A stretch of DNA of 63,978 bases, counting the filler, from Craspedostauros australis (Eukaryota), in the NCBI GenBank assembly GCA_030167865.1. It is 19 parts of 19 records of this genome, joined end to end, with 100 filler letters (N's around TTAATTAATTAA, not from the genome) between each part and the next. Parts side by side here need not be neighbours in the genome. Positions count along the whole stretch, not along the records: positions 19,232 to 39,750 come from JALAGF010000574.1; 18 more parts are not named here. The stretch is one strand, 5' to 3'. A model generated the notes under the pieces. It was not told the DNA's origin and did no database searches. It worked only from the letters and a program-made list of their open reading frames with translations. A program made the position numbers and the translations under genes. Positions 25,246 through 37,821 of this stretch are shown piece by piece (the first letter of the stretch is position 1; each line of letters opens with the position of its first letter).

Positions 25246-26196
25246 TCACTTGGGCTCCCGATATTGCCGTTGGATGCTCTTGCCCTCCTGCGTGAAGGGT
25301 GCCGGGCGTGCCTCCTTTTGACTCTTGACAGCAATCCACTGTCTTTGTAAACTAAACAGCCACATGAGAGATCGTACCAACGTCCGTGTCGATTCCAATG
25401 CCTCTTGCGCTGTCTGCTGATCGTCAATCGAAGCAGTCATAATATTCTTCTTGCGTTGCCGAGCAAGCGCGTGTGTCACATCGTGCGCAGCGTAGTAAAC
25501 CGCCTCCAACGTCGACACCATCCCGCGACCTGATCGATGCCACCTCCAGAAGTAGGAGTCCTCCGGGACCGTGGAAAGGTGAACTCTCGGCAGATCTTGC
25601 AGGGACGGGTGCGCTTGCAACGGCGCTGTGCGAGTCCATTTGCAATCCAGCACGACCAGTCGTCGAATGCGGGATGCCACTTCGGTGATCGGTCGCGAGT
25701 CGGGACTTGGGAACAGCACGAACGTGGTCGGGCCTGCACCATCGTCGTTGCAGTCGTCCGAATAATGTGGCAACTCCATCGATTCCTCCAGATCGAACAA
25801 TCGCACGGTTGGTGTCACAAACTCCGATGTTGTTCCTGCCGCCACTTCTGCGTTCTTGCTGCTCGTAGTCGCATTGTGCTTTTCCTCGTATTCCCGAATC
25901 GCCTTGTTCAGCACATGCAGCTGCACACCCGAGCTGGAGCCTTTTCGTTCCTTGACGTCGAGCAGAATGTCGACATGAAACGGAAGGGCATTCTCCGCCG
26001 ATCGGCACCATCCCTCCTGGGGAATCAGCAATCGATAGCATTTCACGCAGTAAAAGTACTGCGAACATCCGCAGCAATGCACGCGTTGCCAATCCGGATC
26101 GACCTTGGTGTCGTTCAGGTAGTCCACCAGAACCTGTTCCGCACCAACATCCTTGTGCGTAATCGTATCTTGGTGATCATCGTCCTGCGTGACCAT
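25246..26196 (-). CDS. DTWD1: DTW-domain protein, tRNA-uridine aminocarboxypropyltransferase (DTWD1-like)
   Basis: N-terminal C..C....YC..C, LPFHVDIL, FVLFPSPDS, LVVLDCKW (DXTW position), YFWR, STLEAVYY. Confidence 0.85.
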   Translation of the reverse strand: MVTQDDDHQDTITHKDVGAEQVLVDYLNDTKVDPDWQRVHCCGCSQYFYCVKCYRLLIPQEGWCRSAENALPFHVDILLDVKERKGSSSGVQLHVLNKAIREYEEKHNATTSSKNAEVAAGTTSEFVTPTVRLFDLEESMELPHYSDDCNDDGAGPTTFVLFPSPDSRPITEVASRIRRLVVLDCKWTRTAPLQAHPSLQDLPRVHLSTVPEDSYFWRWHRSGRGMVSTLEAVYYAAHDVTHALARQRKKNIMTASIDDQQTAQEALESTRTLVRSLMWLFSLQRQWIAVKSQKEARPAPFTQEGKSIQRQYREPK

Positions 26197-27290
26197 GTCT
26201 GCTGGTTGCGTGGGATGTCGGAAACCGCAATGACTAAAGTTGTTGTTGCCATCCTGGGGGTAGACGTACGTGTGCTGATACGTGGGCTTGTGGTTGGTTG
26301 GTTGGTTAGTTGATGGATTGAGGAGAAACGCGATTTGCCAGATGATTTTTGAAATGAAAGGAATAGTTAGTATTCCGTGTCTTCTGCACGTTGTCAGGAG
26401 GATGGTTTGTCCTTCAACCGGTTTTGACGCCGTTTGATGTTGAGAACAAAGCTGTATCAGACGATGGTGTAACTGTAGTAGACTTGAAGGTAAACTGGTA
26501 AGATTGTTTCTGATTGCTTGTTTTATGTGTTAAGCTTACTGTTGACAGAACGATCGAGTAAAAGGGCAGGGTTCATGCTATCGTGCTTGAGCCGTTTGTG
26601 TTGTACAGCAACATGTCGTAATGGTTCTGTACATACCCAGCTGTGCAGTAACCCCATCTGTAGAGCAGTACTTGATCCACGGGTGTGGATATGCTTCAAG
26701 ATGCTTGCAGGATTTGCAAGATGGTTAGCTGAACAGGTGGTGCAGTTGCATGAGCTGGAGGACGAGCAGAGTATGGATTGTGGTTCAACTATACACCATG
26801 CGCGCGGTAGTCTTTCATAACAGTATCGGGTTCGGATACCGGGTACCGTGTACGCAACGCGGACGATTGAGTCCCGAGTGGATCCCGGACCAAGTCTGTC
26901 CTAACTGGAATGGACATGAGCGAAGTGTCGCGATAACGTCTTTGTAACGTCTTCTGAACTTCGCGCCAAAAATTGTTGACGCGTGGAGTGGTTCGGAAAG
27001 GACTTCAACCACGGCGATGCACGAGAATGTGCCAAACGCAAAGTCAAAGGCAAAGCCACAAAGAGACAAGAAAACAAGCAATCATACAATCCACAACCCC
27101 CATCGTGGTTCGATTGTTCAACCTGTTTCGCAATTGTGTAACCACCCTGTGTGCCTTTGCCTGTAGCTGTGCTCTGACACAAAAGCAGACGCAGAGTACT
27201 GTCGAGGAATAGAGAGTATCCAAGAACCGAGGAAATCTGGAGAACACGCCGCGCTCCCAGCACGATACGCTGCTGGTGACATACCATACC

Positions 27291-30200
27291 ATGCCATCCA
27301 CCAAGATCCAAGCCAACAATCGATCACCGTCACGGAGACGGGGATCACCGCAGAAGAACCAGTCCACCCTGATATCCTTCTTCAAACCCGCCTCACCGAT
27401 ATCGAAAACCAAAGTCACCAGGAGTAGCACCAGGAGTAGCACCAGGAGCAGCAGCAGAAATAACGCTGGAAGCAACGTCAAGACATCGCAGCCCAAGTTC
27501 CGCGAAGGGACCCAGCTGATCAAGGTGAGTGAAGCTTGTTTGCATCCAGAATTTTCAGTTGTGTTGGGGTCGGGAGCATGAAAACGCAGTGGCTGCATTG
27601 TCGCCATCCTCTTCGATCGCGTGCGACGACATCTCACGCTCTCAAAATTTGCTGCCGACCTCTGCCACACCATCCCCAGAAATTCTTGTTGCCTCCGCAC
27701 AAAAGCGGGACTCGAAATCCATCCGCGGATTACATTCATGATCATGGCACCTGGGTGAAGGGCCACGTCCGCAAGGCCGAGCTGTGGCAGCATCCAACAA
27801 ACAACGGCGGCCGGAATGGAGATTCGTGGGAATATGAAGTGGAATGGGAGCACGCCGCAGCGAACAAAGACAGATTGAAGCAAGCAGAGGTTGAATTTGG
27901 ATGCAAGGCATTCCAGAATCTGAATCGGCCAGTTGCCAAGTACTTCGACGCTTCCGAGCTCTTCTACGGCAAAGTGATCAACGTGACACCGCCCCATCTC
28001 AGCGATACCGACGAAACGTACTTCCGCATCCAGTATGATGATGGTGATTCGGAAGATATGACAGGAGCGGAAGTCAAGCAACATGCTGACCTCTATGATC
28101 AAGAACAGAAGAGGACGAACCCGCCGAAGGAAGCCGCAGCTCGCGGCAAGAAACGAACGAGCGCGAGCGTGTCATCAGAGAAGACTTCCGCACCATCCCG
28201 CAAAAGCAAGTATCTCAAGTTGATGGCTTCCTACAACAACGACAACGAAGACAGTGGGAATGATGACGGTGCCGCGGGCAATGTCCAGGCTGAAGCAATG
28301 AAAGTTGATACTGGTCGACGTGCCAACAGCAGAGACAGCAAAACCACCGGTGGCAACAGCAACAGCAATGGCGACAGCAACAGCAGCAACAATGGCGACC
28401 ACAGCAGCGTCAAAACAGAGAGACGCAGATCATGTCGCTCAACCGCCAAGGCAATCAAATACACAGAGCACTTGCATTCGGAGGATTCCTCAGTCGAAGA
28501 CCCGCCCAGACCGCAGCGGCGAACCTCCTCCCGGACGACAGCAACGGCGACGACGACGACTCGCAAGAATTCTCGTGCAGCTGCAAGCAACCAACGCAAG
28601 CGCAGGCAATCCGCGGACGATTCTGACTCTTCTGCGTCCTTTCATAACGATGATGATCAGGACGATGACGATGATGAACTGATGATTGATGTTGCGAAGA
28701 GCGCGTCCAATGAACGCGCTGCTTCCTCAACGAAGACGGGAGCTGGCAAAGCATCGAACAGTCTTGGCGCTCGAAAGCCCAAGGCCAGCAATTCAAGAAA
28801 GACCACCAAGGCGACCAAAGCTTCCAAAATCAGCGACGGCAAGCCCAAGGGGAAGTCAAAAATGGCCGAGTCTTTTACACCACTGAACGCGCCGATCTAC
28901 CCTGGCCACTCACTTGAAACAATCCAAACGAAGTACGCATACCTCGATCCCTGTGGCATGGAGGCAACCGATGATATCTTGGACCGCGAGGTTGGTAAAC
29001 AGGTCGACAAAATTGGATCCCTGCTGAGCAGAGCGATCGGTAACGGTGCCATTGGCGGAGCCACCAATCCGCTCAAGCTGGGAACAGCCTGCAGCGGTAC
29101 GGATGCACCAGCTCTCGCTCTCACGATCGTCCAAGAGCAATGGGAGCTCCGGAAGCAGAAGGCACAGCTCGGCATCGAGCACGTCTTCAGCTGCGAGAAG
29201 GAGCCCTTCAAGCAGGCCTACCTGGCGCGCAACTTCGATTCCATCCTGTATCCCGACATCTGCAAATTGGGCCAGCCCGATCACACACCACGAGATGTCT
29301 ACGGCCGAACAACGCCCCTGCCGGACATGAATCTCTTCGTCGCAGGCACCGTCTGCAAGAATTTCAGTATGCTGCGGTCGAAGTGGCGGATCGATATTGA
29401 AGACAAGGGGGAGAGTGGCGAAACATTCATGGCTGCGACGGAGATTCTGTGGAAGGAGCAACCCGAAATGGCCGTTTTTGAGAATGTGGTCGGCGCTCCG
29501 TGGGTGAGTCATGCCATTCGTTGTCGTTGTCGTTGTCGTCGTTGATGCTCATTTTTTATGACCGTACATAGGTATGTGTGCAAACACCAACTCACCAGAA
29601 ACGCTCGGTCTAACACTTTCCCATCTCTCCGTGATCCCAAACCGGCGCCGAAACATCCATCTCATCCTTGGCACGCATGCTTTGCCTGATGATCGTGTTG
29701 ATACTTCGCAGCTCAAAATGCAAGAGTACATTACAGGTCGAGTAAAGCTCTCAACTGCTTCCGAAAACAAGGCGATCAAAAAGGACACGCGCAAGAAGAA
29801 CGAAAAGCTGTTGTTCGAACGGACCAAGCAGGGTCAGATTGTGGTCGCGGCGGTGCCGTCGACGTACGGCATTCGATGCTGCGCAGTTGTCGAGGGATTT
29901 TGCAAAGGGGAATCTACGACTGTATCCCCCATAACATGGCCGAAGGGAAAGTCCCAATCGCGGGACCAATGCGAACTGAAAGATCTGCTCCTTGCCAACA
30001 AGATCGCTGAAGAAGATATCCTCGTGTTCAAAACACCGTGCCAGTATCGCACTCAGATAGTGAAGGTCGACACCAAGGCATACGGCCTACCCCAGACACG
30101 CCAGCGTGTGTACATGTACGTTTGGAAGGTCAGGGACGACGACACCAACGACAATCTGGGGACGTACTGGCAAGCCATCGTGGAGCATCTGGAATCCCCA

Positions 30201-33200
30201 GTGCAGCATTCCCTCGATGCATTCATGCTGGATGACAACCACGATGTGATCCGAGTATTCCGCGAAGCGCTAAATGGACCACCCGGTCGCCAGACCAAAC
30301 GTGTCAACTTTCAAGAGCCAGACTGGTGGGCAGTGCACAGTAGTAACCGCGTGCACAACAAGTATGCTCGGAAGGGACTGGGTCTGGAGGACGAAGCAAG
30401 GTTCCTGACCAACTGGAAGGCATTTGGCGGGAAGCAGATACCGCTTCATTATTGGTTGGAGTACGTGAACTGCAACGGTGCACGAATCATTGACATGCTC
30501 GACATTCTCAATGCAGCCTGTTTTCGAGACGCAGAATCGCACGATCCTGGCTTCACCTCGTTCTATTGGAATGTGAGCCAGAACGTCTCCAAAGAGAAGC
30601 ATCGCGCTGCGACGCCAGGAAGTAAGTGCGGTGAATGAGCCTCTCTCATTTTAGGTGTTGCCTTGAATGCATGGAATGAGCTTGGGTGTGGACGTCAACT
30701 TTCGGCATTTGTCTTGTCGATGAAAGCGATTGAGATCGCGGAGAACAGAGAGCAAAGACCACAAATCAGAAACTGAGCATGCTGATGTTGCATGTGCCAC
30801 ATGCTTACCTTCCTCACAACTTGGATGTTCCTCTTTTATCGCTTTCGCACCGAAAATCGACCTTGCTCACTTGTACTCGTACGTTGGACTGCGCGCTTTA
30901 CATCGTCTGTGGTCTTCGGGTTTGGTCGATCCTCTCGTACCTTCGCTTGTTTCCTTTCACTGAATTCCCTTCTTCTGTTTCGCGCATGATGTGCTTTTCA
31001 GTCGCTGGTTGCATAACTCCAGGAGGCGACTTCCTGATCCCTCATCGTGGCCGCCCGCTCCTTGGATGCGAGAAGCTGCTCATGCAAGGCATTCCGTACT
31101 TCCGTTTGCTGCTGGGCAACGAGACGGAGGTGCAGCTCGGCGACCTGGCAGGCAACGCCATGAGTCTCACGGTCGTCTGCGCAACGATCTTGGCGTCGCT
31201 GACGTGTCGCCAGCTGCAGAAGGAATGTCCTGGTGGCAATCCCCAGGACATTCGAAATTACCTGAAGAAGAATTGCATGTTCGAAGACAGCTTGAAGAAG
31301 CAACAATGGGCTGACAAGGTGCCCCCGCCGCTATCCTCCAAGGCCAGTCTCCTCGTGCATCCAACCGCGAGCGAGGATGTTGCGATGCCTTTCGATGAAC
31401 TCTTTCGAGACCTGGCCGGCATGGCCGAGGAGGCAACGAAGTCCTCAATCTGGTGCACATGCGAATCAAGTGGCACAGTGTCGCGAGAATCCAAATTCTT
31501 GCAATGCAGGATATGCCGTGCCTCGTGCTGCCGCAACTGCATCAGCTCGCTTGCTGGATACAATGTTTCATCGCACGACACAACGGAAGTCGAACTATCG
31601 AAGGATGAGCACTGCCTGGCAGCATTCCAAACCAAACTGCGAGACAAAGTGCCAACGTCGCTCCAATTTGGCGAGGGCAGCCTCAACGAGATCGCGCAAA
31701 CGAACAATGACACCTTTCGTGTGAAAGGACTCGAGGCATACACTTTCAATCTGCATCAAATCAAGAGAGATCGGCGACGATGGACTGTCGTGTATTACGC
31801 CCGCGAAAATGGTGGCATCGGCGAAGCGCTGGCGGAGCTGCGCCTCATCGTCGGCGAATTGAGGCGTGAATCACTGCAGCACAACAGCGCGTGCCAGATG
31901 GGTGTTGCGGCAGAACTGGTGTCGTTCTTACCAGCGCGGACCTTCCCGTTGCGATTTGGACCACTGGGGCCATGCGCGAAGGTCGAGGTCCTCAAATTTG
32001 GTCCCACAACCTTGGCTGGAAGTGATTTCCATTGGCAACATCGAAGCGGCGATGTCGTGTTGGAAGCAACGGTTGAAGGGAGTGGGCACACACCTTCGCC
32101 CAGGAAGGAGGTGGGATTGATGGACAGCATCGAAGCAGATCTGAGGAAGACAGCAAAAGCCGGCCACAACAGAAAGAAGTTTGAATCCGCAGAATTACGA
32201 GGAGAGAGGAGGCGATGGCTGTATGCAGCGAATTGGCAAACGTGGCCTGCCTCTATCCACGTCAGGATCAACGATACAGATAAGTCTCGCCACGCTTCAA
32301 TTGCCGGCATTTACAACCGCACAGGCTGCAGGCAGTCGATCAATCAGTCAGCTCTCTGGGTGAAACAGGCTTCGGATGCAAGCAATGCCGACGGTGATGA
32401 TCATGACGGTGAAAATGTCGGAAATCCTGCACAGCAGGCCATGTACATCGTGATTCGACCTTGCGTCGACCGCACAGGCCCGGATGTCGCTGTCATCTCC
32501 ACATCGATCGATGCGTCCCATGATGCGTCAGTCGTCGCGGAGTTCCCTGCGACATGGCAACCCTGCGACGCTTTCGATCCAAAGCGGTATGCACAGAAGC
32601 TTGTATGCAGGAACTGGACGAGCAGCAAGCTCGTTCAATGCCTGGTACCGCCGTCTACATCCACCGCGGTGGCAGGCAGAAAACAATCAGACGAGCTGGT
32701 ATCGATCAAAGGTCTGTCCGCGATGGAGCTTGCGATGTTCCATCAGGCTGCTGGGTTGGCGACGGACAGGTGCGGGACTCCCGTGGAACTGTGCATGTCC
32801 CAAGGACAGCAGGCACAGAAACTTGTGCGGGTATTCAACACAGTATGCACGGCAAAGATCCTGAACCTGGCCGCCAAAAATCGATTGCCGTACGATGTCT
32901 CCAACACATCATGGATCGACTTGGAAGAGGACGTGGGGATGCGATTTGGGCACTGCGAAAAGACGATTCCGAGAAGGCCTGTCGAGCAATGGGTCTTTGA
33001 CAAGGAGCGCAACAGCTGGGAGCGCACAAGCGAACCGGATGCTGCAAGCCGCTACTGTACTCAGCTGCATGAGGCACCGAAGCCTTTTGAGTTTTGGTTG
33101 GACAGCGCCTCGAAGCAGCTCGTGGTCAAGTGCTTTCCCAAGGTCGTTGCGCATCATGCTGCCCACATGCTGATCAATTGCAGAGGGAAGCAGATCGAGA

Positions 33201-35644
33201 ATGGCGAGATTCGAGTGCGTGGCAAACTGTCGGATACGTCACTTCAGGACGACCCGGACATCAAGGCCTTCCGAGTCAAGAATTGCGACCACATGGAGAC
33301 CACGGATGTCGCTCTGAGCCACGGTCACGTGCTGTATCAACGCCAGCAGAAGGTTGTGACCCAGATGGTAAGAATTGAGAGCGGGGAAACGACTTTCACA
33401 GAGGAAGAGATGAGTGAGCATCAACTCGCGGGCTCGACAGGACTGAGCTTCATCGCCCAGGCAACGCGTTCCTCCAAGATCAGAGGAGGTGTGATTGCTG
33501 ATGCCATAGGTGCAGGCAAGACTGTGATCTCCATCGCAATTATCCTCCAGGGTATTGAACACGCGAGGAAGTCAAGGTCCGAACCATGCAAAAGTGGAGC
33601 GACTCTCATCGTCGTCCCCCCTGGACTCATCAAGCAATGGGAAAGTGAGATCCAGAAGTTTGCCCACCGTCTCAAGGTCTTGCCAATCTTCGCATTCGAT
33701 TCGTTGAAGAAAACATCGGTGAAACAACTGCTCGAGGCTGATGTGGTCATATGCCCCATCGATATTCTCGAATCGAAGGGTTACCTGGAGAACCTGACGC
33801 AGAAGGCAGGGTACTTGAAGGAGCTGGTTGAGAAGTCAAAGGTCTTGAAGGAGCTGGCCCAACCTGCGCGCGGTGGCATTCCTCGGGAGATCATACCAGA
33901 AATGCCACGATCAGTAGGCCAGGTCGAAATCACGGCAGCCCGGGGCAACTGGATTCCGTCCACCTCCACCGACCCCTACGGCGGAGGCAATCATTGGCAG
34001 AACCAACGCCGTCGCAACCAGTCCGCGCACTACACTTACATGTACGAGAATAGCGTCAAACACCTGCGCGAGCAGAAGTTCGGAGCATCCAGCAAGGGGA
34101 TCCCGTTGGAATACTTCGAATGGGAACGCATTTTCGTGGATGAGATCCATGAGAGCCTGTGTACCACCAAGGCCGAGGTCAGCACAGCGAAAGAAGCGTA
34201 CGAATTCAACAACACGTCCACGAAGGGGTTCTTCGCGGAGAAAAATCGAAGAGCTGGCCGAGAGCTGCTCGGTATCACCATGAAGGAGACGGCGAACAGA
34301 CCTCTGCGATGCCGCAATGCCATGTTTGGTCTCACGGTAAGTCACAGCGATTGAGAATGGGACCTCGAGAGCATCATCACTGCGTGGTTATGTGTGCTGC
34401 AGCGTGCTGGTGTGTCAGAAGAGAGATGGCTATGTTTGATGCGTCGTCAGCACTTCTTGCTTTGCCGTACCATTCGCGTGGCGTGTTGCTTTGGTTGGTT
34501 TGAAGCTTTCCCAATCGAGCTCGCCGTGCGCTATTCTCTGTGCAGAGGATTTTGTTTTCTAACTATTTCATAGTCGTGTGGCCGTGTGCCACCGCATTCC
34601 AATTGCTATTTCGCTTTCATCAACGCATACATCCACTGATATCACAATCCACCATTCAAAATCCACAACCTTCAGGGCACACCGCTGCTCGACAGCACAA
34701 GTCGCGTTTGCGAATTGGCCAACCTCATGGGCGGCGTGTACGTCACGGGTCTGTGGTCGCATTGGAGAAGGCTGGAGCGTGAATCATGCCGTGATATCTT
34801 CCTGATGAACTACCTCGTACCCAAGCAGTCACGTGAAACTCGCAAGGCAATGTACCGCAAGTCGCAGGACTACCTCGATGTCGCGTGCTGCCGGAACAAG
34901 GCAGATGATCAGATGGTCGGAATCAAACTGACCGAGATGGTGAAGCGCGTGCAAATGACGAAAGAGGAGGAAGAGATGTATCTGCGAAGTCAGAATGGAA
35001 TTCTGAAGGAGCAACGAGGTTTCTCAGTTGTGCCAACCGATTTTGATCCCAGCGCAGGCCATGACATCAGCCAGTTCTTGAGGCAGAACTCCAACATGCC
35101 CTGCCGTGGAAAGGAGCTGTCGAGGATCTGCGAGAGTATCCTGAAACGTCGACCGCAAACCAAGATCGTGGTCTTCTGCGATGGCAGGATCAACGCCAGC
35201 TTCCATGCCCAGCAGGCCCTGCAACGGGAAGGCGTGGAGTGCACATGGCTGGACCCGGAAGATACGGTGGAGAGGCGAAATGAAAAGATTTCATGGTACC
35301 AGGTGGCCGACGCCACCGAGGAGGATAAGGCAAGGCCCAGGATCCTGCTGCTCAATTTCGAGCACGCCGCAGGTCTCAACCTGCAAGCCGAGTGCAACAA
35401 CCTCATCCTGTACACTCCGCTGTACGTCGGAGAAGGTGGATCGAGCGGAGATCCAGTGACCGACGTCAGCACGGAACTCCAAGCCATTGGCCGCGTGTAC
35501 CGACCAGGCCAACCGCAACACGAGGTGCTCGTGTACAGAATCGAAGTCAGGGGGCCCAACGGCGAAGCCTGCCTGGATGATCACCTGATTCGGAGGAACA
35601 CCGATGCAGACACCAAAGCCGAGGCAACCAACTCCGGTGACTAG
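27291..35644 (+). CDS. DNMT5: DNMT5-family cytosine-5 DNA methyltransferase fused to a SNF2 ATPase (~2,420 aa); exons 27291-27524, 27680-29503, 29712-30621, 31002-34336, 34676-35644
   Basis: MTase motifs LGTACSGTDAP (I), FSCEKEPFKQAYLARNF, AGTVCKNFS (IV), ENV (VI), YGLPQTRQR (VIII), GCITPGG, DLAGNAMS (X). SNF2 motifs GGVIADAIGAGKT, VDEIHE, GLT|GTP, AAGLNL, QAIGRVYRPGQ. All four GT-AG introns keep frame and two rebuild motifs (ATPG|IAGC, GLT|GTP). Confidence 0.93.
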
Positions 35645-36240: not shown

Positions 36241-36852
36241 TTTCCATTCCCTGGTGGAAAAATTGGCTTTTATAGGTTGAAGGAGACATCATGTCATCGG
36301 TCTAGGCTTGTACGTCACACTATGTGGAACGCTGGCGTATTGATTCGTTCGACCAAACAATGAATTCGGCGTTCCAATTTTCCTAAATCCAACTCGGGCG
36401 AACACGGGACAGGCAACTCGGGACTCGTGACAACCACACGACAAAACGAAGCCATCACGCAACGCCCCCAAACGCGGCGCATTTGCGATCTTTGTTGTTC
36501 TGGTGATGTTCTTGGCGTGGATGTTTTGTCGGAATCTTTCTCGCACCCATCGCATCATCTGCGCAGCCCACCTCTTGTTCGGCACAAATGGCATCGGAAA
36601 CACTGCTCACATCAACACAAGCACCATCGCACAAGCGAAGGAACGAGGCCCAGTTGGTTGGCCATCGCTGTCTGTTGGACCATCGCACTCATCTGCGGCC
36701 TTCGCGTTCCCGACAGTGTCTGCCACCATAGAGACCTCTTTTTCGTAGATCGTTGGCCACTCATCGGCTCCGCACCTTTTGTACCGTTTGCGTGACCGCT
36801 ATTCACGCATACACGCACAGGCACAAGAGAATACAACGCTCCAACGAGGAAC

Positions 36853-37821
36853 ATGTCGAGGATGGCGACTGCGACGGCCACGCGAAAGGACATCGCCATG
36901 CCGAACAAGACAGTACGATCCGTGAACGATTGGGTGGAATGCAGCTTCAGGCGCTGGATGCGGCGAGCCGCCTTCTACTGTCTCATCAATGGCTACATCA
37001 GCGCGATAGCGGCCGTCCATTCGATGCTCGCGTTGTGGGGACGAAACCACGGCGAATCCATGGAGCTCGTGGCGGTGTATGCAGCCAGCGTCATCCGTAT
37101 GATCGTCCCCATCCTCTTCTTTGAAGCGCTGATAGCGATGAAAGTGCCACGGATATCGGCGGAACAACCGCGCGACGATACCAGCTTCAAGACGCTGTGC
37201 CGTGTTCTCGTCACCATTTTCGTTTTCAATTCGGCCTTCGACGTGATGTTCATGAAGTACATCGTTCCCGCGCTGGGCGGGCTTGGAGAGGATAGCGGAG
37301 ATTACCTCGGCGAGTTCCTTTCCTTCATCCCCAAAAGCTTCACTGGTGAGATGGTCTTCGACTTCTTCCACTACTGGGGACACAGGATGTGTCATCAGAA
37401 TAAGTTCCTCTTTGCGATCCACAGCCACCATCACGACCATGTGCACTGCGGTCCGCGCAGTGGGATGGACATCCACCCTGCTGATTTCTTCCTCACCAAC
37501 GTCATCCCAGCGTCGATAGCCTTATTGGTGTGCAACGCGCTGGTCGGCGGATTCACGGAGTGGCAGTGGCATCTCTTCCTCAGCTACAAAACAGCAACGG
37601 AGATCGGTGGACACAGCGGGTTGAACTACAACGCCATGTCGTTTCCTCAATTCCCCATACTGCAATGGCATTTTGCAGACATACCCCTCTCGGTGGCCGA
37701 TCATGAATGGCATCACGTCAAGCCCACCAAGAATTTTGCGAAACGATTTGCCGTTTGGGACCGGCTATTCGGGACGTACGAAGAGCACAAAGCTAGTCAA
37801 AAGACGAAGAAATTGAGATGA
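36853..37821 (+). CDS. Fatty acid hydroxylase / sterol desaturase superfamily membrane enzyme
   Basis: Di-iron His boxes HYWGHRMCH, IHSHHH, GGHSG, HEWHH; NFAKRFAVWDRLFGTY; multiple TM segments. Confidence 0.9.
   Translation: MSRMATATATRKDIAMPNKTVRSVNDWVECSFRRWMRRAAFYCLINGYISAIAAVHSMLALWGRNHGESMELVAVYAASVIRMIVPILFFEALIAMKVPRISAEQPRDDTSFKTLCRVLVTIFVFNSAFDVMFMKYIVPALGGLGEDSGDYLGEFLSFIPKSFTGEMVFDFFHYWGHRMCHQNKFLFAIHSHHHDHVHCGPRSGMDIHPADFFLTNVIPASIALLVCNALVGGFTEWQWHLFLSYKTATEIGGHSGLNYNAMSFPQFPILQWHFADIPLSVADHEWHHVKPTKNFAKRFAVWDRLFGTYEEHKASQKTKKLR

Follow-up and report, generated by a model that had tools for sequence, protein, structure and literature searches.

A canonical PCNA-interacting protein (PIP) box was found near the N-terminus of a predicted DNMT5 of the diatom Craspedostauros australis, and the same motif recurs in the N-terminal regions of the DNMT5 family far more often than shuffled sequences would lead one to expect. 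The DNA analyzed here (63,978 nucleotides of joined parts of assembly GCA_030167865.1, hereafter referred to as the window) contains at positions 27291-35644 one plus-strand gene of five exons, which encodes a diatom DNMT5b, an enzyme in which a CG methyltransferase and an SNF2 ATPase are fused. Diatoms and many fungi are not known to possess DNMT1 and depend on DNMT5 for the copying of CG methylation, and DNMT5 is described in current reviews as uncoupled from the replisome. If conserved, a PIP box would offer a straightforward and testable means of recruitment, resting on one motif that could be mutated. We consider it moderately probable that this DNMT5b, which would combine a PIP tail encoded by exon 1 with two Tudor-type barrels and a charged linker, docks on PCNA on replicated DNA.

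The PIP box and its recurrence in the DNMT5 family

Exon 1 (27291-27524, plus strand) comprises 78 codons that begin at the first ATG of an open reading frame (ORF) at 27213-27581, and it matches no Pfam family. The 78 residues read from the ATG at 27291 include 17 Ser, 9 Arg, 8 Thr, and 8 Lys and have a net charge of +16, in agreement with the basic tail that an earlier reading of this DNA (the original prediction) had assigned to the first exon. The motif QSTLISFF is present exactly where it had been predicted, at 27360-27383 on the plus strand (residues 24-31); it is a Q-x-x-L-x-x-F-F sequence, conforms to the canonical PIP pattern Q-x-x-[LIM]-x-x-[FY]-[FY], and closely fits the logo of the 31 carriers described below, K-Q-[ST]-[ST]-L-[TS]-S-F-F-x-P-A-P-K. 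Two plus-strand sites of the cyclin-dependent kinase (CDK) pattern [ST]-P-x-[KR] had also been predicted, and both are there (SPSR at 27324-27335 and SPQK at 27345-27356). A more general association of such sites with the motif did not emerge: among 31 carriers of PIP-like cores, from which four cores in folded parts had first been removed by hand, the pattern occurred 8.2 times per 1000 residues within 20 residues of a core versus 5.0 elsewhere (p 0.11; p 0.054 for bare [ST]-P), so that enrichment of CDK sites near PIP-like cores is a trend at most.

Homologues were anchored at the start of the methyltransferase N-lobe (in the window gene, 28862-29503 covers the start of the DNMT5-specific region and of this lobe; plus strand; Pfam DNA_methylase; 63-69% identity to diatom relatives), and the sequence upstream of this anchor was used if the protein opened with Met and had at least 40 residues there. 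The homologue searches yielded no protein identical to that of the window, the best identity being 63-69% in conserved parts. In the first set, which includes the window gene, 75 of 105 N-termini were usable and contained 9 canonical motifs (0.20 expected; none of 2000 shuffles reached 9). When Tudor regions were masked, 7 of 49 non-fungal N-termini carried the motif (expected 0.03; 0 of 2000 shuffles), as did 2 of 26 fungal ones (expected 0.04; 2 of 2000 shuffles). A second set, composed of partial N-terminal halves and collected as a replication after the hypothesis had been fixed, had 57 usable sequences out of 66 and 5 motifs (6 if one cut by the Tudor mask is counted), against 0.036 expected and with no shuffle out of 2000 reaching the count. 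The third set consisted of new proteins, represented at 50% identity, and 16 motifs were detected in its 71 usable N-termini (out of 116), against an expectation of 0.057 (0 of 2000 shuffles). A check of conservation had been proposed in the original prediction, and among homologues the motif occurs far above chance: the pooled sets hold 31 canonical motifs in 31 proteins among 203 N-terminal regions (53,699 residues), for which shuffles expect approximately 0.3.

The enrichment is specific in place and in form. In the remainder of the proteins of the first set, 7 motifs were found in 139,469 residues, a ten-fold lower density, and 20 of the 31 pooled motifs lie within the first 45 residues (median position 24). 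Reversed, the motif does not occur at all in the 203 regions, and variants with the spacing shifted by one residue on either side occur 6, 4, 1, and 2 times. When Q at position 1 was replaced, N, K, and S gave 4, 4, and 5 occurrences, and E gave none though it is 3.3 times commoner than Q. By loose single-linkage clustering the 31 carriers form 20 sequence groups; on this sequence measure, kinship inflates the raw count and cannot explain it. A looser core (hydrophobic-x-x-aromatic-aromatic) was observed 19, 14, and 28 times in the three sets, against 1.7, 1.9, and 2.4 expected, and is carried by 17 of 49, 13 of 57, and 27 of 71 N-termini, i.e., by about a fifth to two fifths of them. Judged by these statistics, selection has kept the PIP box in the DNMT5 family as a real short linear motif.

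Diatom carriers that could be named include Cylindrotheca closterium (P0043) and Fragilaria crotonensis (P0186). A basic tail with the PIP box ahead of the Tudor region is present in relatives of the window gene, and the order of PIP box, first Tudor module, and second Tudor module seen in the window was also found in P0040 and P0043 (Cylindrotheca closterium). A group of DNMT5b N-terminal halves, one of them from Fragilaria crotonensis, opens with MKQPSLTSFF, MKQSTLSTFF, or MKCKQSTLAGFFKP, close to the motif of the window; three of these halves probably belong with C-terminal halves placed in the 9-row clade of the window gene and would then be its close relatives. Several proteins that lack the motif are visibly truncated models (for example, P0045 begins inside the first Tudor module of its sister P0043), and the carrier frequency is therefore a lower bound. 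A short first exon that bears the motif is easily missed by gene callers, and annotated DNMT5 N-termini probably under-report it. Among fungi, the motif was detected in DNMT5 of Amanita thiersii, Jaminaea pallidilutea, Saitoella complicata, a Dothideales species, Rhizophlyctis rosea (two proteins), Podochytrium, Cladochytrium replicatum, C. tenue, Rhizoclosmatium hyalinum, Cytospora mali, and Tothia fuscella. Because of these fungal carriers the motif is not a diatom peculiarity, and the contrast that the original prediction had drawn with fungal Dnmt5 does not hold as stated, since a canonical N-terminal PIP box occurs in chytrid, basidiomycete, and ascomycete DNMT5 as well.

As a separate observation, four metagenome loci, L004 and L005 (ORFs opening at 1109 and 346) and L016 and L021 (42 and 1355), encode relatives of DNMT5b with the non-canonical cores GKGIAAFF and SGSITSFF. 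In all four the core shares one uninterrupted ORF with the methyltransferase N-lobe, so that the motif stands on the enzyme without any assumption about splicing.

The gene and the probable join of exon 1 to exon 2

Pfam matches on the successive ORF pieces of the gene follow each other in the order DNA_methylase, SNF2-rel_dom (E 2e-15), and Helicase_C, which is the arrangement by which DNMT5 is defined (a single polypeptide with a C5-methyltransferase followed by the SNF2 N- and C-lobes). Full-length diatom DNMT5 proteins align with these pieces in the same order, at 40-65% identity. Exon 2 (27680-29503, plus strand, like the exons that follow) encodes two Tudor-type modules, a disordered acidic/basic linker, and the beginning of the C5-methyltransferase domain; exon 3 (29712-30621) continues this domain; exon 4 (31002-34336) encodes its end, the middle region, and the N-lobe of the SNF2 ATPase; and exon 5 (34676-35644) encodes the Helicase_C lobe and the stop codon. 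Joined, exons 2-5 amount to 7038 nucleotides with a single stop, which is terminal. Introns 2-4 were placed from diatom protein alignments at 29504-29711, 30622-31001, and 34337-34675, with the donors GTGAGT, GTAAGT, and GTAAGT, respectively, and with YAG acceptors throughout.

In a FastTree phylogeny of 62 rows, the window gene falls inside a clade that holds Fragilariopsis cylindrus 212855 (P0014), a protein labelled DNMT5b with an N-terminal LBR-Tudor domain (PF09465) in Supplementary Data 4 of PMC9998398. Tree placement and the N-terminal Tudor match described below together assign the window gene to the DNMT5b subfamily. The DNMT5a locus of P. tricornutum was considered and ruled out, as one guide target and two quantitative PCR primers for it (Supplementary Data 19, PMC9998398) had no match with up to two mismatches.

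The mature mRNA most likely joins exon 1 (27291-27524) directly to exon 2 from 27680, a splicing model in which, on sequence evidence, we place high confidence. The proposed intron 1 (27525-27679, plus strand, 155 nucleotides, GTGAGT...CCCCAG) has a donor of perfect consensus (AAG|GTGAGT at 27524/27525), the same hexamer as in intron 2, and an acceptor CCCCAG|A at 27679/27680, and the join is in phase 0. The hexamer GTRAGT is rare: it occurs 14 times on the plus strand in 64 kb, and four of these occurrences are donors of the DNMT5 gene. Two in-frame acceptors are available to the exon 1 donor, and only the one at 27680 has a pyrimidine tract (0.75 vs 0.30). Base composition points in the same direction. 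The AT skew is +0.46 (+0.458) in exon 1 and +0.13 to +0.27 in exons 2-5, as compared with -0.14 (-0.139) in the proposed intron 1, a value attained in no more than 1.4% of equally sized exonic windows, and with -0.19 to -0.26 in introns 2-4; its sign flips exactly at the proposed exon/intron borders.

It is also conceivable, if unlikely, that exon 1 lies outside the DNMT5 mRNA and that translation starts at the ATG at 27578 or in another upstream exon, giving a protein without the PIP box. The ATG at 27578 falls in the proposed intron 1 and shares the reading frame of exon 2. The codon score of exon 1 under the gene's own codon model (0.068) is no better than that of upstream non-coding sequence (0.123) and lies below the coding mean (0.296 +/- 0.123). 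An orthologue-only profile does not discriminate either: the spliced and unspliced forms score 77.7 and 78.4 bits (77.7-79.1 when the form with exon 2 only is included), and the profile aligns the window only from the third strand of the first Tudor module on. Against these points stand the next in-frame Met (28058), which lies within the second Tudor module and so calls for a start ahead of the Tudor pair, the consensus donor with its rare hexamer, the change in sign of the AT skew, the relatives in which a basic tail with a PIP box precedes the Tudor region, and the codon usage of the segment that the alternative start would add. This segment (34 codons, 27578-27679) scores -0.292, whereas about 96% of coding windows of its size score above zero.

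Some side observations may be added. AT skew runs from +0.13 to +0.46 in the exons of 27291-35644 and from -0.26 to -0.14 in the introns, a clean separation that could aid exon calling elsewhere in this genome. The ATG at 27578 would offer an alternative N-terminus without the PIP box, and the codon usage of 27578-27679 is intron-like and its AT skew not exon-like. The gene is flanked by a divergent minus-strand ORF at 25246-26529 (Pfam DTW, E 1.3e-13), with approximately 760 bp between the end of this ORF and the DNMT5 ATG, and by a plus-strand ORF at 36796-37821 (Pfam FA_hydroxylase, E 2.4e-18).

Tudor modules and linker

The region 27680-28125 was modelled with AlphaFold2 from an alignment of 22 rows chosen for Tudor matches. 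The model has a mean predicted local distance difference test score (pLDDT) of 83.5 and a predicted template modelling score of 0.72 and shows two similar units, each of four strands and a helix. The second unit (27929-28117, plus strand; pLDDT approximately 89-98) corresponds to the clearer of the two Tudor segments named in the original prediction and is recognized by Pfam as a PTM/DIR17-like Tudor (PF21743 PTM_DIR17_Tudor, 27926-28081, E 1.2e-7, 31.8 bits vs a cut-off of 27.2). Structural alignment with VIA-align gave Z 5.5 against the PHF1 Tudor and 5.4 against the RDM15 Tudor.

The first unit (27722-27919, plus strand) has no Pfam match, and its pLDDT is 72-88, except for the first strand (52-58), which, at low confidence, parallels the first strand of the second module. 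In VIA-align it matched the first Tudor of the UHRF1 tandem Tudor domain (TTD) with Z 6.2-6.5 and a root-mean-square deviation (rmsd) of 2.6-2.9 A over 64-66 residues, and the SMN Tudor with Z 6.2. As values of Z below 8 are rated middling in this program, we refer to module 1 as Tudor-like, a name that does not imply a proven Tudor fold. The original prediction had drawn a strand of this module across the exon junction, and the model departs from it by placing the whole of module 1 within exon 2. Because the module is complete there, a junction-spanning strand is not needed and gives the junction no support. For the pair as a whole, the best Foldseek rows (E 0.005-0.06) were almost all tandem Tudor structures, namely the UHRF1 TTD, 53BP1, SHH1 SAWADEE, SETDB1, and BAHCC1; the relative orientation of the two barrels is unmatched, because the TM scores in Foldseek were low (0.25-0.35). 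At the sequence level, the Tudor pair had no match among solved structures at E <= 1.

In some DNMT5b relatives (P0004, P0036, and P0042), the Tudor region is preceded by a methyl-CpG-binding domain (PF01429) that lies beside a PIP-like core. The set of N-terminal readers therefore varies by lineage, and the PIP-like element recurs. A further element lies at 28418-28501 (plus strand), in the disordered linker that separates the Tudor pair from the methyltransferase domain, where a basic run (often G-R-R-x-R in the family) is followed by [VI]-x-Y and then by a run of Ser, Asp, or Glu. By eye, which is how conservation was judged here, this linker motif is found in nearly all the diatom DNMT5b N-termini displayed, whichever of the two subclades they belong to, and also in a protein of Triparma. 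A PIP-like core (KITNYF, KITSYF, or MITDYF) takes its place in a few members.

Proposed PCNA docking and comparison with known systems

The statistics given above show selection on the motif and not the identity of its partner, and it might serve another binder of FF peptides (such as those of the Rev1- and Mlh1-interacting classes) or function in import or turnover. Many cores in the family lack Q at position 1 (e.g., MKKITSFF, APSIKGFF, and GKGIAAFF), which fits such a partner. On the other side, the strong specificity for Q at position 1, together with the exactness of both spacings, is a signature of the PCNA class and not of an FF-only motif, and a basic, disordered N-terminal end is the typical location of PIP boxes. 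The sequences are also close to peptides crystallized on PCNA. Those listed in PMC7225939 include DNMT1 (RQTTITSHF), Pol eta (MQTLESFFKP), p15 (p15PAF; QKGIGEFF), ZRANB3 (QHDIRSFF), and FEN1 (QGRLDDFF), and since the motifs of the DNMT5 family resemble these peptides, PCNA is supported as the partner. We accordingly judge a partner other than PCNA improbable.

The canonical core in a basic context could also be read as a PIP degron, through which CRL4-Cdt2 would destroy DNMT5 in S phase in a PCNA-dependent manner, with no role in recruitment. Two features mark a PIP degron, T-D at positions 5-6 and a basic residue at +4, but the motif of the window shows I-S and S, respectively, at these places, and in the logo of the 31 carriers position 6 is S, A, T, N, or G, with D rare, and P is found at +4 more often than K; the TD motif itself is noted in PMC7225939. 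With T-D and the basic residue missing, the degron reading is disfavoured and very unlikely. Least credible of all is a chance match in a low-complexity tail: a lone match to an eight-residue pattern in one protein would carry little weight (about 0.003 are expected per N-terminal region in shuffles), but 31 were observed against approximately 0.3 expected, no shuffle reached the count in any non-fungal set, and the reversed motif was never found.

Several points must nevertheless be set against docking of the window protein on PCNA. The canonical motif has a patchy distribution (only 31 of 203 N-termini), and short motifs arise convergently, so that recurrence speaks for selection and leaves the partner aside. 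P0107, which stands nearest to the window gene in the N-lobe tree, lacks an N-terminal PIP box and has only a non-canonical NTRIDDFF in its linker; the position of the motif, as far as sequences can tell, turns over in the family. No canonical motif was found in the DNMT5 ORF of any of 25 metagenome loci examined, none of which is a close relative. The Tudor pair had no Foldseek match at E <= 0.001, and all VIA-align Z scores were below 8; the codon scores of exon 1 reported above belong here too. Finally, a 2026 review describes DNMT5 as independent of the replication apparatus (PMC13297926). If a PCNA tether were family-wide, it would contradict this view.

PCNA docking remains the reading that we favour. 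The motif, its enrichment and specificity in the family, the Tudor-type units of the model, and the architecture of the gene are shown directly, and from them we infer PCNA binding, coupling to replication, a Tudor ligand, and that exon 1 is used. In the proposed mechanism, the PIP box of the tail (residues 24-31) would most likely insert into the hydrophobic pocket of PCNA, and docking behind the fork would concentrate the enzyme on newly replicated, hemimethylated CG DNA. The Tudor pair would most likely add reading of histone methyl-lysine or of chromatin context, and the SNF2 ATPase would drive the hemimethyl-specific methylation known for DNMT5. The comparative evidence strongly supports the core of the original prediction, a PIP box followed by Tudor readers on a diatom DNMT5, which points to PCNA-coupled maintenance methylation. 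In view of the fungal carriers, the motif may be a family trait and not the suggested diatom convergence on DNMT1. Whether the canonical PIP box at the N-terminus dates far back and belongs to DNMT5 as a whole, in fungi as well as in diatom DNMT5b, and tethers CG maintenance to PCNA at the fork as in DNMT1, appears to us evenly balanced.

Part of this architecture has been described before. In the accessible portions of Hoguin et al. 2023 (PMC9998398), LBR, Tudor, MBD, and HAND domains are reported at DNMT5b N-termini and an analogy with UHRF1 is discussed. Its main text contains no occurrence of 'PCNA' or 'PIP', and the domain table in Supplementary Data 4 is restricted to Pfam. The window gene shares with these proteins the subfamily and the N-terminal Tudor; neither a second Tudor-like module nor a PIP tail is described in those portions. 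No PIP box of DNMT5 was found in the searchable full-text literature, a scope that does not extend to subscription papers on the structure and mechanism of Dnmt5, and where that literature names both DNMT5 and PCNA, the passages available tie PCNA to DNMT1 or to other uses. The novelty that had been claimed thus appears to stand for the PIP box within this scope, and not for the Tudor/LBR part.

Among characterized enzymes, Cryptococcus neoformans Dnmt5 (a DNMT5a) shares the methyltransferase-SNF2 core with the window gene. It is the sole CG maintenance enzyme of that fungus (PMC8566409, PMC13297926) and is reported to be targeted by a chromodomain and H3K9me and to be independent of the replication apparatus (PMC13297926). 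DNMT1 likewise maintains CG methylation and has its PIP box (RQTTITSHF; PCNA complex 6K3A, PMC7225939) in an N-terminal region that is disordered, as is presumed for DNMT5; in both enzymes the box is read as targeting to the replication fork. DNMT1-like cores such as QAKITNYF and TTKITSYF occur in some DNMT5 relatives. Unlike DNMT1, DNMT5 is fused to an SNF2 ATPase and has no RFTS, CXXC, or BAH domain, and its catalytic architecture is unrelated; its motif lies at the extreme N-terminus and is of the Q-S-T-L-x-S-F-F type, and PCNA binding is shown for DNMT1 and predicted for DNMT5. If the prediction is true, one clamp serves two maintenance methyltransferases that are unrelated to each other. 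The UHRF1 tandem Tudor, a two-barrel reader in a maintenance-methylation pathway, ranked first in Foldseek (E 4.7e-3) and, for module 1, in VIA-align as well, but superposition of the whole pair reached a TM of only 0.32 with an rmsd of 12.9 A, so the barrel orientation either differs or is not predicted. A similar layout to that of the window protein is known from MSH6, in which an N-terminal PIP box is followed by a PWWP/Tudor histone reader of the Royal family and then by an extended disordered linker that leads to the enzyme part. The PIP motif of human MSH6 is nearly the same as that of the window, but MSH6 works as an ATPase in mismatch repair and not as a methyltransferase. The combination of a PIP box, a Royal-family reader, and a long linker suggests a common route by which enzymes of DNA transactions may reach replicating chromatin.

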